Origin: Fervidobacterium sp.
GTDB lineage: Bacteria; Thermotogota; Thermotogae; Thermotogales; Fervidobacteriaceae
Assembly: GCA_049970055.1 (NCBI GenBank)
Contig: JBMFNR010000001.1
Span: forward strand, 544,001-608,000
DNA length: 64,000 nucleotides
Reading direction: 5' to 3'
Shown here: piece after piece, positions 4,745 to 42,738 of the stretch
Numbering within the stretch: the stretch's first letter is position 1
How the letters are laid out: each line of letters begins with the position of its first letter
Program-made: the position numbers and the translations under genes
The notes under the pieces: generated by a model
What the model was told of the DNA's origin: nothing
The model's database searches: none
Seen by the model: the letters and a program-made list of their open reading frames with translations, nothing else

Positions 4745-6733
<1,989 letters not shown>

Positions 6734-36421: not shown

Positions 36422-38359
36422 ATGGATCTGCGTTTAAAATGGTACATTATGACTTTTGTTACCGCTTTTTTAATTGTTTCATCAATACTTTTTTCTGAAA
36501 GTATTGTGTATAAAACAGGTGAATCTATGGACGGAAAATTAATAGGCGCGATTGATCAAAACCTAGTGTTTGATACTACTTTGGGCCGTATATTTGTTCC
36601 TATTCAGCAGGTAGATTTCGTTATTTACAATAAAATAGTGAATCCAGAGAAAGGTTTCATTTCAATTTCTGGTAATAAAATCTCTGGATATGTGGAAAAC
36701 ATAAACGATGGATACGTAACCGTTGTGACGAACTTTGGAAAAATGAAAATTAAGTTATCTAATGATATAGATTACCTGTCCTTCTCAAAGGTCGATCTTC
36801 AAATACCAAGCCAAGTTAGCACTTTTACTGTTGAGCTTACCACGTCAGATAATTACGCGGTATTTTTGTCCTCGGGTGAGATGGTTACTGGCATGAAATT
36901 AAGCGAAAATGAAGGGTATCTAACGCTGATCGATAAGTATGGAAATGAGCTGCAAATAAGAAGAGATTTTGTTGAAACAGTTTTTATTCCTGTCGTAAAA
37001 GCCATAGGTTATGACCTTTTAATACTAAAAGATGGGAGAAAAATTTACGGCAAAGTCACAACAAAAAATAACCAAATTTATGAGATCTCCGCTGAATGGG
37101 GAAAATTAACAATCAGTGTTTCAGAAGTTGTATTTACAACTTATAGGCCTGACAAAACAACTCAATCTCTTCAACAATTTACTCAAGAAGTACAAAAATT
37201 AAATAACTTAATTTATGACAAAGATTCAATAGCGACCATGGTGGTTAAAAACCCTCTTAAAGTCGATGGTAAAGAAGTGAGAGTTGTAAAAGTTTACCCC
37301 GAGGAAGTTGTTGATCCACGAACAGGTGTCGTATTCGTTTTTGTACCTGGTGGAATATTCAAGATGGGAGCGGAAAAGGATTGGGATAAGGTCGAAGAAG
37401 ATGAGTTGCCGTCAAGAAATGTATATGTATCTGGTTTTTACATCTCAAAATATCCGATTACGGTTAAGCAATACATCGATTTCTTGCGAGCTGCACAAGT
37501 TTCGAATGTTGCCATAGGTAACAATATTTTACCAGTTCAAATTAATTTTCTCGGTTCACAGTTCAACGTGAGTTATAAAGCCCAAAGCGATGTTCTAAAT
37601 TTACCTATAACAGGTATCAGTTGGAACTCTGCAAAGGCTTATTGTGATTGGGCTGGTTATCAATTACCAACAGAAGCACAATGGGAAAAGGCTGCACGAG
37701 GTACAGATGGAAGAATGTACCCGTGGGGAAACACCTTCCAAAACAAGTACAACGACGGAAAGAAAAATTATGATGTGAAAGCTTTCGAAACTACTGATGT
37801 TTCACCTTACGGTGTGGTTAATATGTACGGGTACCCAGTTGAGTACTGTCGTGATTTTTACGATAAAGATGCCTACAAAAAGCTACCAGCTGAAAATCCG
37901 GTTAGCACTTCTGGGAATTTGGTTGTTGGCCGTGTTGGAGCACTTTCCGGGCGGATCACCGACAAGATAGCAGTAGCCCCATCGGAAATTCGTAATGACT
38001 TTACGTTTAGAGTAGTCATTAATGCAGACAATATATTCACCCTTTTTGATAAACCAACTAACAATAAATTAATGGGAGTTACGTGGTTCGTGGTAAACGA
38101 AAAGGTGAAAACGCAATACAATATAAAAAATGAAGGCATGTATATTGCCTTTGTAGAAGAAGGTTCCCCTGCACAACTCGCTGGTATTAAAATCGGAGAT
38201 GTAGTAATCAGTATAGACAAAAAGCCGATAAAAACCCAAGATGACATAGTAAAAAGTATTTCCGGGAAAAAGATTGGTGATGAGGTAACGGTAACCGTTA
38301 ATAGGTCTGGAAAAATTATAGATTTGAAAGTCAATTTGGGAATTTGGAAACTCTATTAA
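36422..38359 (+). CDS. Exported protein: N-terminal repeats + FGE/sulfatase-modifying (SUMF1-like) domain + PDZ
   Basis: PGGIFKMG, ISKYPIT, YCDWAGYQLPTEAQWEKAARG and YPWG motifs; PDZ GSPAQLAGIKIGDVV. Confidence 0.85.
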   Translation: MDLRLKWYIMTFVTAFLIVSSILFSESIVYKTGESMDGKLIGAIDQNLVFDTTLGRIFVPIQQVDFVIYNKIVNPEKGFISISGNKISGYVENINDGYVTVVTNFGKMKIKLSNDIDYLSFSKVDLQIPSQVSTFTVELTTSDNYAVFLSSGEMVTGMKLSENEGYLTLIDKYGNELQIRRDFVETVFIPVVKAIGYDLLILKDGRKIYGKVTTKNNQIYEISAEWGKLTISVSEVVFTTYRPDKTTQSLQQFTQEVQKLNNLIYDKDSIATMVVKNPLKVDGKEVRVVKVYPEEVVDPRTGVVFVFVPGGIFKMGAEKDWDKVEEDELPSRNVYVSGFYISKYPITVKQYIDFLRAAQVSNVAIGNNILPVQINFLGSQFNVSYKAQSDVLNLPITGISWNSAKAYCDWAGYQLPTEAQWEKAARGTDGRMYPWGNTFQNKYNDGKKNYDVKAFETTDVSPYGVVNMYGYPVEYCRDFYDKDAYKKLPAENPVSTSGNLVVGRVGALSGRITDKIAVAPSEIRNDFTFRVVINADNIFTLFDKPTNNKLMGVTWFVVNEKVKTQYNIKNEGMYIAFVEEGSPAQLAGIKIGDVVISIDKKPIKTQDDIVKSISGKKIGDEVTVTVNRSGKIIDLKVNLGIWKLY

Positions 38360-38901
38360 CTTAGCTTTTCAAAGAAGTACTCTTCAAACTTTTTTACTTT
38401 GCCCGCATCGACGTCACAGAAGATAATTTTTTCAATTGGACCATTGTAATCTTTTAAATAATCAATTAAAGTTTCGATAACGACATGTGCAAATCTTTCA
38501 AATGGATAGCCGAAAATACCTGTTCCAACGAACGGTAATGCGATGTTTTTCACACCGAGTTCATCTGCCTTCTCAATTATGTTTGTTATACATTTTTTCA
38601 TAATTTCATCGTTTTCTAACTTGTCTCCAATGGGACCAACGGCATGTATGACATATTTAGCCGGTAAGCTACCAGCACTTGTGACAGCGACTCCTCCTGG
38701 TGGTACCGGTCCATGTTTTTTCACATATTCGTCACTTTCTTTTTGGATTTCGGGCCCTCCTCTACGCGAAATTACACCTGCAACTCCCCCACCGTGACTC
38801 AAGTGCAAATTCGCAGCGTTCACTATTGCGTCGACATTTTGCATGGTGATATCATCTACGATAAAATGTATCTCAACAGGCTTCTTACCAAAACTTATCA
38901 T
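38356..38901 (-). CDS. Macro-domain ADP-ribose hydrolase
   Basis: DIT, AIVNAAN, HGGGVA, IHAVGP and GTGIFG motifs. Confidence 0.93.
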   Translation of the reverse strand: MISFGKKPVEIHFIVDDITMQNVDAIVNAANLHLSHGGGVAGVISRRGGPEIQKESDEYVKKHGPVPPGGVAVTSAGSLPAKYVIHAVGPIGDKLENDEIMKKCITNIIEKADELGVKNIALPFVGTGIFGYPFERFAHVVIETLIDYLKDYNGPIEKIIFCDVDAGKVKKFEEYFFEKLS

Positions 38902-38935
38902 CTTTTACCACCTCTTATTGCTCAAGTTAAATAAT

Positions 38936-39679
38936 TTAGTCTTTTCGATCTTCTTCAAATCTCTCCGGCCAAAGTTTTCTGTATATTTCACCTATTCTTG
39001 CTTCTTTCGATATGTTATTAGGGTAATAGAATCTTTCTTTTATCTCCTTTGGTAAGTAACTTTGCTTTACAAATCCACCAAACGCATGGGGATATTTGTA
39101 ACCGCTATCCTCAACGTTTAGCAAGTGCCTTGGTACGGGAATGTTCATAGATTGCTTGGCCACCATTTGCGCTTTGTTTACGGCTTCGTAACTTGAATTA
39201 CTTTTTGGGGCAAGAGAAAGGTATATTACACACTCTGCTAGGTTAATAACACATTCTGGTAAACCAACGTTCTCAACTGCTTGCATAGTTGCCGTGGCCA
39301 GTACAAGAGCGAATGGATCTGCAAGGCCTATATCTTCGCTTGCTAGTATGACAAGCCTTCTTGATATAAACCTTGGATCTTCCCCTCCATTTAACATACG
39401 TGCCATATAGTAGAGTGCAGCATCTGGGTCACTTCCTCGAATGCTTTTTATAAAAGCGGATGCTAAGTTATAGTGTTCCGAATCTGTATATTTTGTTAGA
39501 TTTTCACCTACGTACATTTCAAATACTTCTTTATCTATGGTGCTTTTTCGCATCACCTTTGCCATGTTCGAGAGAATTTCGTAGGTGTTGATTAAGAATC
39601 TACCGTCGCCATTTGAAGATTTAACAAGCTGTTCTTTAATTGTATTCTCAACTTCGACACCAACGTAGGAAATTACCCT
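38936..39679 (-). pseudogene. rarA: rarA/mgsA 3' part (247 codons), separated from the 5' part by an insertion
   Basis: Open frame RVISYVGVEV...SNGDGRFLIN...SAFIKSIRGSDPDAALYY...ASEDIG...PKSN...YKYPH. Confidence 0.92.
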
Positions 39680-39713
39680 TACGTAAACAATCGGTAAAAT
39701 CTAAATTACGTAC

Positions 39714-39742
39714 TTGACAAAATGTTGTTTTTGTGGTATAAT
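39714..39742 (+). promoter_or_regulatory. Perfect-consensus sigma70 promoter inside the insertion
   Basis: TTGACA-17 nt-TATAAT with extended TG. Confidence 0.9.
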
Positions 39743-39790
39743 TTAGACGAAAAAGATTAACACAATTTTAACAATGCCAACTTAAACTTC

Positions 39791-39890
39791 TAACTTAGAT
39801 TATGTCTAATTTAGACATGGTCTAAGTTATTGCTTACATGTCAATAATACATAGCTTAGACAAGGTCTAAATTGTACTTTGTCTAAGCTA
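39791..39890. repeat. Two 39-nt palindromic units built from TTAGAC-N3-GTCTAA boxes
   Basis: Units at 39791-39829 and 39852-39890, 29/39 identical, with a 22-nt spacer. Confidence 0.9.
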
Positions 39891-39938
39891 AGTGTTTTCA
39901 TCGGCGTAACATCAAACTGTAAAGAAAGGGTGATGAGA

Positions 39939-40712
39939 ATGTGTAGGTTAGCGGCTTTTAGTAATCTAAAAGTTAAGGGTAAGTGGTTAGATTATCTAAC
40001 ACTTGCTCAAGGTGGTGATGGTAACGGGTTTATTTACCCCACCCCCGACATTGATATGAGAAAAGTAAAGGAAGGGCGGTTACACCACGAACTCTTTGGT
40101 GACTTCGTGGTTTCTAAATGGTACATAGAACCCGAGGTCACCATTGACTTTGAAGTTTCAACAATCTACTACAATTTTGGCATTGCTCAAGAAGTAGTCG
40201 AGCCAAAGAAAAAGTACAGACTCGTAGACTACGAGCATATGAACATTGCATCAAAGCCATGGTTACTATTCCACACCAGACTTGCAAGTGCTGGAGAACG
40301 GAAACTCGAAAATGTGCATCCAGCCATAGCAAAAAACGTACTACTGATGCAAAACGGTCACGACGTGAATTTTACCAAAAAGTTAGCAAAAGCGATGAAC
40401 TACAGTTACCTCGGAACAGATTATCATACAATAGCTTGGATGCTCGCTGACGGCGTGATAAAGCCAGAGTTATTGCTACATTCAACAAGTAACTGGTTCA
40501 TTATTGACATCGAAAAAAGAACATTCACCATTGTAAGCGCCAAAGAATTTGACCCACTCTTCTTCCACAAGAGCGGGAAGGGGTTCTATATTGCCTCTGA
40601 ACCGCTCGAAACAAATCACAAAGGATTTTACTTCACGGGTATCATTCGCTTTAACATCACGAGTGAGGGACTTAAAATATTAGACGAAGATATCGAAGTA
40701 CACGAAAAATAG
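39939..40712 (+). CDS. Stand-alone class II glutamine amidotransferase / Ntn-hydrolase (YafJ/EgtC-like), 257 aa
   Basis: Start MCRLAAF (Cys2) with GAAAGGGTGA RBS; DGNG, HTRLAS-x-G...NVHP, QNG, GTD and IASEPL motifs. Confidence 0.82.
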   Translation: MCRLAAFSNLKVKGKWLDYLTLAQGGDGNGFIYPTPDIDMRKVKEGRLHHELFGDFVVSKWYIEPEVTIDFEVSTIYYNFGIAQEVVEPKKKYRLVDYEHMNIASKPWLLFHTRLASAGERKLENVHPAIAKNVLLMQNGHDVNFTKKLAKAMNYSYLGTDYHTIAWMLADGVIKPELLLHSTSNWFIIDIEKRTFTIVSAKEFDPLFFHKSGKGFYIASEPLETNHKGFYFTGIIRFNITSEGLKILDEDIEVHEK

Positions 40713-40742
40713 TTGGAAAGCATGGAAGGTCTCACTTTTAAT

Positions 40743-40776
40743 AAAAAAGCGAAAAAAGGGGACGGTTTCCCACGCT
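40743..40776 (-). terminator. Putative terminator facing the host rarA transcript
   Basis: Minus strand reads GGGA-AACCG-TCCC followed by two T6 tracts; the stem is short. Confidence 0.45.
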
Positions 40777-40837
40777 AGAGCGGATTATACGACGTATATC
40801 TTCAACCAAATAGCCACCACCTTCTGTTGTTGACCAT

Positions 40838-41323
40838 GTTAAGGAGTTTTTCAAGATCTTGTTCGGAAAGCTTTCTAAATCTCAACATTCTACACCGTGA
40901 AAGTAGAGCTGGGTTTATAACATGTTGCGGATTTTCAGTTGTTGTTCCAAAAAGCACGTAGGTACCAGTTTCTACACCGGGTAAAAAAACATCCTGCTGT
41001 TTTTTGTTAAACCGATGGATTTCGTCTACAAATATTAGGATTTTCTTTATTCCTCTCATATTACGCGCGTACTTTTCCAAGTTCTTTATATCTTCAGTGC
41101 TTGTAAATGCTGCGTTCATTTGGACAACTTCGTAGTTGGTGTATCTTTTGATAAGATTCACCACAGAACTCTTCCCGCTTCCGGGAGGTCCGAAAAGTAT
41201 TGCGGAAAATAAGTTGTTATTCTCAATTGACACACGTAAAAAAGCACCCTCGCCGAGAAGGTGCTCCTGACCAACAAAATCTTCAAAAGTATTAGGCCTG
41301 AGTATTTCGCTTAAACCACTCAA
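40838..41323 (-). pseudogene. rarA: rarA/mgsA 5' part (162 codons, AAA+ core); reads 11 codons into the insert and stops at 40802
   Basis: LRP-x-x-x-x-DFVGQEHL, GPPGSGKS, VDEIHRFNKKQQD, TTENP and ALLSR motifs. Confidence 0.92.
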
Positions 41324-42227
41324 CAGTTTTCTTCAACCCCTCTTCGAGCGTGTACTTTGGTTCCCACTTTAGTTCGATCCATGCACGATTATAGCAAAGC
41401 AAACTTTTTCTTATATCGCCTTTCCTGTGGGGGCCATAGATAGGATCCTTTTTGTATCCGGTAAGCTTCTTTAGCAATTTGAACAATTCGTTTGTAGTTG
41501 TTCCAGTTGCTGTTCCGATGTTAATAACAAGACCATCACCTTTTTCCATTGCCTTTATGTTTGCATCTACTACGTCTTCTACGTAAACGTAATCTCTTGT
41601 GTATTCTCCATCACCAAATATTGTGCAATCTTCGTTTTTTAGCATTCTTGAAGTAAAAATAGCTACAACTCCAGCTTCACCGTATGGGTCTTGCCTTGGA
41701 CCGTAAACATTACCGTATCTTAAAACGGTGTACGAAAGGCCAAATTCTTTGCTAAAAAACCTCAGATAATTTTCAACAGCAAATTTTGCAATACCGTATG
41801 GAGACATTGGCTGCGGGAAAACACTTTCAGGAGTTGGGAAGACCTTGACGTCCTCGCCATAAATAGCTCCACCTGTAGAAGAGAATATAAATTTTTTTAC
41901 GCCATGTCCTATCGATGCCTTTATTAAATTTATGCTTCCAATTATATTCCAATTTGCATCTTTAACAGGGTCCTTTACGGAAATAGCCACACTTGCCTGC
42001 GCTGCCAGATGAAAGACGTATTCGAATTTTTCAGATTCAAATAATTGATCTGTTTTCTCACTTTCGTAAATGTCCATTTCTAAAAACTTAGCTTTTGGAT
42101 TAACATTCTCCCTCTTTCCAGTCGAAAGGTTGTCTATAACAACCACGTCGTGGCCCAGTTCGACTAATCTGTCTGTAAGATGTGATCCAATAAAGCCAGC
42201 TCCACCCGTTACTAGTACTTTACTCAT
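41292..42227 (-). CDS. UDP-glucose 4-epimerase-like extended SDR
   Basis: TGGAGFIGS, HLAAQ, SSTGGAIYG, YGIAK and RYGNVYGPRQ motifs. Confidence 0.92.
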   Translation of the reverse strand: MSKVLVTGGAGFIGSHLTDRLVELGHDVVVIDNLSTGKRENVNPKAKFLEMDIYESEKTDQLFESEKFEYVFHLAAQASVAISVKDPVKDANWNIIGSINLIKASIGHGVKKFIFSSTGGAIYGEDVKVFPTPESVFPQPMSPYGIAKFAVENYLRFFSKEFGLSYTVLRYGNVYGPRQDPYGEAGVVAIFTSRMLKNEDCTIFGDGEYTRDYVYVEDVVDANIKAMEKGDGLVINIGTATGTTTNELFKLLKKLTGYKKDPIYGPHRKGDIRKSLLCYNRAWIELKWEPKYTLEEGLKKTVEWFKRNTQA

Positions 42228-42738
42228 CAACTTCATCCTCCTTTATTTTTCCTTTCAATGTGTAAACTTCTTCTGGTATTTCTAGATTCATTCTTTGCTC
42301 TTTTATAAACTTTTCTAACTCCTCGGCTTTTTCTTTAGTAAAATCAATCAAAACTGAGTAAAACCTTCTTAATTTTCTTCTCGTGTCCGCATCCAAATCG
42401 TACACCATCAGATTTGCAATTTGTTCAGCTTTTTTTTCAGGCACTCCCACCACATACATGAAAAAATACTTTATTCTTGACTCGCCTGATTTTAACATCT
42501 GAGCTATTCTTAAGCCACGTGGGGTGAGTTTTACAAAACCATATCTTTTGTGGTCAACGAGCCCAAGCTCTACAAGTTTTTTCACAGCATTAGTTGCGCT
42601 CGCATAAGATACACTTTTCAATTTAGCTATTTCTGAAATTCTTGCTACGCCTTCTTTTTCGATGAGAGAATATATCGCAGAAATGTAGCTCATAACTGTC
42701 GATGTTAATTTTGTTTCATGCTTGTTTTCGCTTTTCAC
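42220..42738 (-). CDS. DtxR/MntR-like winged-helix regulator
   Basis: YISAIY...ARISEIA...KKLVELGLV...VKLTPRG. Confidence 0.82.
   Translation of the reverse strand: MKSENKHETKLTSTVMSYISAIYSLIEKEGVARISEIAKLKSVSYASATNAVKKLVELGLVDHKRYGFVKLTPRGLRIAQMLKSGESRIKYFFMYVVGVPEKKAEQIANLMVYDLDADTRRKLRRFYSVLIDFTKEKAEELEKFIKEQRMNLEIPEEVYTLKGKIKEDEVDE

Follow-up and report, generated by a model that had tools for sequence, protein, structure and literature searches.

What has happened to rarA in the 64,000-nt stretch of DNA from a hot-spring Fervidobacterium sp. analysed here (the window)? The gene, one of DNA repair, lies on the minus strand and is interrupted at 39679/39680 and 40837/40838, the two parts being separated by an insert that carries a single gene for a protein resembling N-terminal nucleophile (Ntn) hydrolases. 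The question raised by this arrangement is whether the insert is a reversible switch, whose departure would restore RarA, or a piece of foreign DNA that has simply put the gene out of action. An earlier note on the locus preferred the switch, envisaged as a minimal cassette mobilised in trans, and gave a recent insertion or a reduced prophage remnant as its fallback. It is the fallback that fits the data best. The insert looks like a recent insertion that knocked out rarA and not like a reversible switch. The reading that we prefer, with a probability of about 0.6, is that a phage-derived unit of the kind known as a moron, present either as a trimmed prophage remnant or as a captured fragment, has inactivated a dispensable rarA. 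The insertion, as such, adds a further case to a class of events already known.

There is evidence of two kinds for the foreign, mobile-element origin of the insert that had been supposed in the earlier note. One is a spacer from the clustered regularly interspaced short palindromic repeats (CRISPR) of a sister species, G003, whose sequence corresponds to that of the hydrolase gene at its ribosome-binding site and opening codons (38/41 nt overall; Table 1). The array concerned consists of 16 repeats of 36 nt and 15 spacers of 39–42 nt (L063 2038-3220; G003:C1 ~1594540-1595720) and is adjoined by csm6 (L063 3832-5268, minus strand; Csm6 HEPN domain, E 4e-14); the remaining 14 spacers have no match in the genome to which the window belongs (G000; 1.87 Mb in 26 contigs, 98.7% complete, and probably a metagenome-assembled genome). 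The CRISPR evidence means that the hydrolase gene travels on an invader.

The other is a 15-bp palindrome with the appearance of an operator, TTAGAYNNNRTCTAA, of which there are five sites in the 1.87-Mb genome, three in the leader of the insert and two in the non-coding end of contig C10. One pair of sites with a 16-nt spacing is present at both loci, and the leader and C10 share 21 identical nt and 31 nt at 94%. C10 (6.6 kb, 6648 nt) is a phage fragment with open reading frames (ORFs) that read, by eye, as tail-fibre-like, metallophosphoesterase-like and cell-wall amidase-like. The end of C10 in question (L003 1300-1723) is non-coding, contains four GTCTAA-type repeats and ~98-nt direct repeats at 84%, and is where the contig breaks; it was not found in 40 relatives and may be an origin or regulatory region. 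The palindromes probably still serve to regulate the cassette, through a protein with binding sites on the phage of C10 as well.

The cassette is also found outside this genome. Diverged copies occur in three metagenomes from three studies, namely run X1, a public hot-spring metagenome, and two others (hot spring, oil field), and 10/16 of the listed ORF differences between the copies are synonymous; the hydrolase gene is therefore maintained in the population. X1 holds, besides the window's form, a second copy of ~95% identity. This variant loses similarity at 40761, 76 nt short of the insert's right end, and its continuation is not in G000; thus, copies of the cassette do not all have this right end. 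From the sequence, the point of divergence resembles what the deletion joint of a trimmed prophage would look like. The flanks of the X1 variant and of that in another run, X3, have no match in the G000 genome. The loose end of the X3 copy at 39679/39680 was considered as a discrete left end and rejected, since any relative of the cassette outside rarA loses similarity exactly there.

As to rarA itself, the earlier note held that the gene is cleanly split and that precise removal of 1158 bp would give a RarA of 162 + 247 = 409 aa free of frameshifts and stops, and both points are borne out, with the same coordinates and frames. The junction of the product joined in silico, LLN/RVISY, falls within a gap-free stretch when compared with relatives: all seven of the intact RarA proteins that were aligned (408–421 aa) run across it without a gap, and R163 of the joined protein stands opposite K/R/N. 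This comparison with intact rarA, which had been proposed as a check, revealed no residues lost at the junction, and neither half holds a stop or a frameshift. The RarA/MgsA domain set of AAA+ core, AAA lid and MgsA_C is complete across the two halves, with an AAA match in the N-terminal half (residues 42–147, E 1.9e-13) and matches to AAA_assoc_2 (from residue 8, E 2e-14) and MgsA_C (E 1.5e-58) in the C-terminal half. Residues visible in the alignment of the N-terminal half include GPPGSGKS, FVDEIH and SRC, which we take to be the Walker A, Walker B and arginine-finger motifs, respectively. As the DNA stands, the N-terminal frame enters the insert and meets a stop at 40802, giving a truncated ORF that totals 173 aa, and an in-frame ORF of 209 aa beginning with ATG is present for the C-terminal part. 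The insert, of 386 x 3 nt, parts the C-terminal half from the transcription of its operon, and transcripts from the strong promoter of the insert probably run antisense into the 5' half of rarA.

Table 1. Features of the interrupted rarA locus (positions in the window)
Feature	Position	Strand	Remarks
Insert	39680-40837		1158 nt; single copy in genome; ends slide 1 nt
Sigma-70 promoter	39714-39742	+	TTGACA-17-TATAAT, 12/12 consensus, extended -10 TG
Leader with two long palindromes/hairpins	39791-39897	+	Three 15-bp sites TTAGAYNNNRTCTAA at 39795, 39811, 39856
Protospacer	39936-39977	+	CRISPR spacer of sister species G003: 36 nt at 97%, 42 nt at 93%
Ntn hydrolase/class-II glutamine-amidotransferase-like gene	39942-40712	+	256 aa, MCRLAAF...; alternative ATG at 39936
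Right-hand 76 nt of insert	40762-40837		Absent from ~95% variant in run X1
Out-of-frame tail of rarA N-terminal half	40802-40837	-	11 insert-encoded codons (MVNNRRWWLFG), then stop
Imperfect direct repeat	39673-39679 / 40831-40837	+ (39673-39679)	TTACCCT (rarA flank) / TGACCAT (in insert); 5/7, chance ~0.018 per side
rarA 5' half	40838-41323	-	162 codons; AAA and RuvB_N Pfam matches
rarA 3' half	38936-39679	-	247 codons and stop; AAA lid and MgsA_C domain
galE-like epimerase gene	41292-42236	-	In operon-like row, after uracil-DNA-glycosylase-like and repressor-like genes and before rarA
Macro-domain gene	38356-38901	-	In the same row, after rarA

The contents ascribed to the insert in the earlier note were a promoter, a structured leader, one Ntn-hydrolase gene and a terminator-like structure, of which the first three stand and the last does not. 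The leader, of ~190 nt, includes two 17–18-bp hairpins located 110–215 nt from the insert end, and its predicted fold has an energy of -62.7 kcal/mol vs -33.4 kcal/mol for shuffled sequences (z = -7.5). The hydrolase gene is the only long ORF. The 3' 125 nt of the insert fold no better than shuffles (z -0.2 on the plus strand and -0.8 on the minus strand), and a terminator scan found no plus-strand terminator. Against Rfam, the insert had no matches at E<=1 other than two to microRNAs, both put down to chance.

The insert sits in rarA at the native locus of the gene, where the order galE-like gene, rarA, macro-domain gene is conserved in relatives. rarA is uninterrupted in 12/12 of the same-genus genomes searched. 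The N- and C-terminal parts abut within 0–3 residues in all 10 of the relative loci that were fetched (by tblastn), in eight of which rarA is also preceded by the galE-like gene and followed by the macro-domain gene; the halves are likewise contiguous in two fragmented genomes, G004 and G007.

We therefore prefer to regard the insert as mobile-element DNA, most likely from a temperate phage related to that on C10, which would constitute a self-contained, moron-like transcription unit in which a strong promoter and operator-like palindromes precede a single Ntn-hydrolase gene. Two routes into rarA can be envisaged and are equally possible. In route (a), a prophage would have integrated into rarA, and an internal deletion would then have left its two ends together with a moron lying close to one of them; this is suggested because of the 76-nt tail, the imperfect 7-nt repeat and the fact that accessory genes usually lie near prophage ends. 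In route (b), a fragment would have been captured by illegitimate recombination. The length of the insert, a multiple of three, would be a one-in-three accident. Both halves of rarA would be intact because the insertion is recent, and the knockout would be tolerated because RarA/MgsA is non-essential, as it is in model bacteria. The cassette would still be expressed and controlled by a DNA-binding protein, probably phage-encoded, that recognises TTAGAYNNNRTCTAA, and its product would cleave an amide bond using the N-terminal cysteine.

Morons are described as independent transcription units that have spread among phage genomes by horizontal transfer (PMC3594210). The rarA insert is like them in that it combines a consensus promoter of its own with a single accessory gene and shows signs of a mobile-element origin, but it differs in lying inside a chromosomal housekeeping gene and not between phage genes, and no terminator was found for it. 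If this ordinary reading is true, a single phage accessory gene of a thermophile has come to lie by itself, with its regulatory region, within a housekeeping gene of the chromosome. For annotation, rarA should here be treated as a fresh pseudogene and the hydrolase as a mobile-element gene; the insert also offers a way into the phages of Fervidobacterium, about which there is little knowledge.

It should be noted that several points weigh against a phage-derived knockout. An in-frame, scarless-looking insertion with both halves of the gene intact would also fit a switch, and the imperfect 7-nt repeat at the junctions could be a degenerate attachment (att) core. The link between the insert and C10 rests on a short motif. 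The truncated allele may be common to several strains: an N-terminal half identical to that of the window over its 173 aa is on record from a second contig (209 kb, the window's contig being 661 kb), and the sequence sits in a cluster of four. Finally, no donor phage with the cassette was found in phage records, plasmid records or IMG/VR. Protein searches of genome contigs, viral contigs, phage records and plasmid records did not find the cassette, the exact end and operator strings have no match in viral contigs, and DNA searches across the phylum turned up, besides matches to generic promoters, nothing but the G003 spacer; promoters of this kind are present throughout the phylum and account for the short DNA matches of the insert there.

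Amongst the alternatives, the one that survives best, although we consider it unlikely, is that the cassette is itself the unit of transfer: a small circular DNA generated by a phage, with a promoter, stem-loops and one ORF, would have become integrated in rarA. The precedent is the PeSLs of T4-type phages, in which a strong sigma-70-like promoter and stem-loops accompany an ORFan, and for which small encapsidated circles have been proposed as gene-transfer vectors (PMC2839356). The rarA insert, with its 12/12 promoter, two hairpins and one rare ORF in 1158 nt, matches this published anatomy, including the total of ~1 kb, and the CRISPR spacer directed at the ORF would also be in keeping with a transferred unit. 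However, PeSLs are repeated many times per phage genome and act as terminators, whereas here there is one unit, its hairpins precede the gene, in the 5' leader, and circles were not detected. A second promoter–stem-loop module, by recombination with which such a circle could have been made, was not found, the operator pair on C10 being all that is shared, and no circle junction was seen in the contigs that were examined.

The switch itself, in which a non-autonomous gene-intervening cassette would be excised and re-inserted by a recombinase encoded elsewhere, whether by a phage or by the host, and would thereby toggle rarA, is improbable, and no positive evidence for it emerged. The skin element interrupts sigK, and in this and other gene-intervening switches (SPbeta in spsM, gin in gerE and SpyCI in mutL) a foreign segment likewise lies within a coding gene whose frame is rebuilt on exact removal. 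The known elements of this kind have site-specific recombinases of their own and recombine inside a core common to both ends (PMC5595907, PMC4191935, PMC4129442); gin, for instance, carries girA/B/C and recombines within a 9-bp consensus core (PMC5595907), and the SpyCI target mutL is, like rarA, a gene of DNA metabolism (PMC4129442). The exact 1158-nt deletion that restores a gap-free RarA, the absence of stops and frameshifts from both halves, and the imperfect direct repeat at the two junctions would all suit such a system, and the phage of C10, whose palindromes the leader shares, could supply a protein in trans. Yet the insert is unlike the known switches: it has no recombinase, its shared core does not exceed 1 nt, no sign of its excision was seen, and it is only 1.16 kb long. 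The identity at the two junctions (offset 1158) extends over 1 nt, by which alone the boundary can slide, and no terminal inverted repeats were found on the insert. There is no second copy of the unit or of its ends in the G000 genome, the X1 variant does not have the same right end, and the insertion is absent from rarA of all 12 congeners.

A recombinase that might act in trans was sought in the G000 assembly, with the limit that genes missing from its 26 contigs would go unseen, and no Resolvase (PF00239), Y1_Tnp (PF01797), IS110 (PF01548), rve or DDE_Tnp_1 was found. Two matches to Phage_integrase (PF00589) were obtained, an open frame of 302 aa, which is probably the housekeeping Xer-type tyrosine recombinase, and a C-terminal fragment of 124 aa. 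The fragment stands beside transposase fragments like those of insertion sequences (IS) near the end of C1, outside the window (G000:C1:656249-660321). No empty site or circle joint was detected in four runs, which is a weak test since contigs alone were searched, the depth of the run holding the insert is 3–5x, and rare forms are dropped. If excision were nevertheless true, gene-intervening switches would be extended to elements without a recombinase and to a non-sporulating thermophile. A bolder form of the idea, that the 1158-nt unit is a minimal, recombinase-less, single-gene promoter-bearing mobile element of phage origin, which may travel as a mini-circle, insert with no duplication of its target and be removed exactly by an enzyme of a phage or of the host, and which would be the smallest gene-intervening element known and toggle a replication-restart gene, is about as improbable.

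Other classes of element were compared with the insert. An intron (group I or II) or an intein was rejected, as the Rfam search was empty of them, the rarA frame stops 11 codons into the insert, and the ORF of the insert is on the opposite strand. The ends, compared by eye with consensus sequences, do not fit an integron cassette, IS200/IS605-style targeting of TTAC or integration of the XerCD/dif type. A TTAC does occur 3 nt from the junction, and moving the junction there would put Met where relatives have K/R/N. The IS200/IS605, IS110 and IS91 families are known for producing no target duplication and having no terminal inverted repeats. The rarA insert is like them in both respects and in possessing internal hairpin-forming DNA; unlike them, it has no transposase in cis, its hairpins are not subterminal, it is present in single copy and the assembly contains no gene of the Y1 or IS110 type.

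It is very improbable that RarA functions here as two polypeptides, an N-terminal ATPase core and a C-terminal lid with MgsA_C, in a gene fission that has been tolerated or selected. Both halves are intact ORFs and the 209-aa frame with its ATG could serve the C-terminal part, but the cut after residue 162 would fall where the AAA+ lid begins and in no clear linker, as read from the ranges of the Pfam matches. The C-terminal half, moreover, lies behind the insert and lacks a recognisable promoter of its own (weak 9/12 matches are on the other strand only), and no relative has a split gene.

Misassembly had been named in the earlier note as what would undo the observation. Logan contigs from X1 agree fully with the window over 39427-39779 and 40680-40946, reaching 100–253 nt either side of each junction, although X1 may be the window's source sample and so a second assembly, not independent DNA. 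Despite the 26 contigs of a genome that is probably metagenome-assembled and the second cassette variant that coexists in X1, a chimeric join can be set aside almost entirely, since separately built contigs cross both junctions, it is improbable that two chimeric joins would between them restore the frame exactly, and the truncated N-terminal ORF is also on record from the 209-kb contig.

The nature of the protein encoded by the insert can be considered separately from how it reached rarA. In Pfam, the hydrolase matches GATase_6 at 19.7 bits, which is under the 27-bit cut-off, and in NCBIfam it matches glmS far under the cut-offs. The label of Ntn hydrolase is nevertheless sound, from conserved residues and predicted fold together: at least 90% of the 20 sequences that were aligned have Cys1/Arg2, HTR and NG do not vary among them, and the AlphaFold model (pLDDT 89.3) finds 71 Protein Data Bank chains at E<=0.001 with Foldseek, the best being the glutaminase domain of GlmS (E 2.8e-9), with EgtC and PurF also among the matches. 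The protein is thus like the class-II amidotransferases (GlmS glutaminase domain, EgtC, PurF and YafJ-like proteins) in the Cys that follows Met, in HTR and NG and in predicted fold, but it is unlike them in its 10–16% identity, in standing alone with no synthase partner domain, and in belonging to a very rare family. A profile of its relatives weakly picks up open frames of 457–478 aa and 608 aa, which we take, by their size, to be PurF- and GlmS-type enzymes. PADLOC gave no match for the ORF.

The family is both rare and mobile. Only 15 clusters at E<1e-10 were found among 1.84 billion representatives, a word-indexed protein search returned only six homologs, metagenome contigs yielded only two, 41% identical, and four of the 151 genomes of the phylum have a member. 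One homolog, P0001, encoded on a 334-kb contig, is 97% identical. Distant members (33–41% identity) in genome G042 and in a contig from the Joint Genome Institute (JGI) sit among small same-strand ORFs without Pfam matches, surroundings that appear phage-like from the arrangement of the genes. On the JGI contig (L042 560-3878), a 305-aa homolog has an ORF on either side, of 344 and 351 aa; these two are paralogous, have no Pfam match and may represent a conserved partner gene. Contigs of 1162–1199 nt with the homologs P0003, P0005 and P0006 were considered as free circles, and this is unsupported: on a 5.6-kb contig, the neighbours of a P0006-like gene are paralogous ORFs, at which assemblies would break. 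Two genomes of different species, G008 and G009, have in common a 1.9-kb segment at 98% identity (L017 186-2085, L018 1390-3289), with a 226-aa hydrolase homolog and a protein of 277–280 aa that begins like a signal peptide; the gene next to this segment in G008 has an MrfA Zn-binding domain.

Some minor observations concern the palindrome and the neighbours of rarA. The tandem arrangement TTAGAYNNNGTCTAA-N-TTAGAYNNNGTCTAA was encountered in three unrelated genomes, those of a metagenome-assembled Woeseiaceae, a Streptomyces and a metagenome-assembled gammaproteobacterium (L072, L073 and L074, each at 6001-6031), for which our own estimate is ~0.02 chance matches in 596 Gb. It is intergenic in all three, lying in L074 upstream of a gene read as encoding a catalase-peroxidase, and a widely distributed family of regulators may recognise it. 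In the operon-like row to which rarA belongs, the names of the uracil-DNA-glycosylase-like, repressor-like and macro-domain genes come from reading their translations, and rarA starts with a TTG inside the final part of the galE-like gene. The galE-like protein is 86–97% identical to the orthologs of relatives vs 61–79% for the rarA halves (window 38356-42236); in Fervidobacterium, rarA evolves faster than the adjacent galE-like gene.

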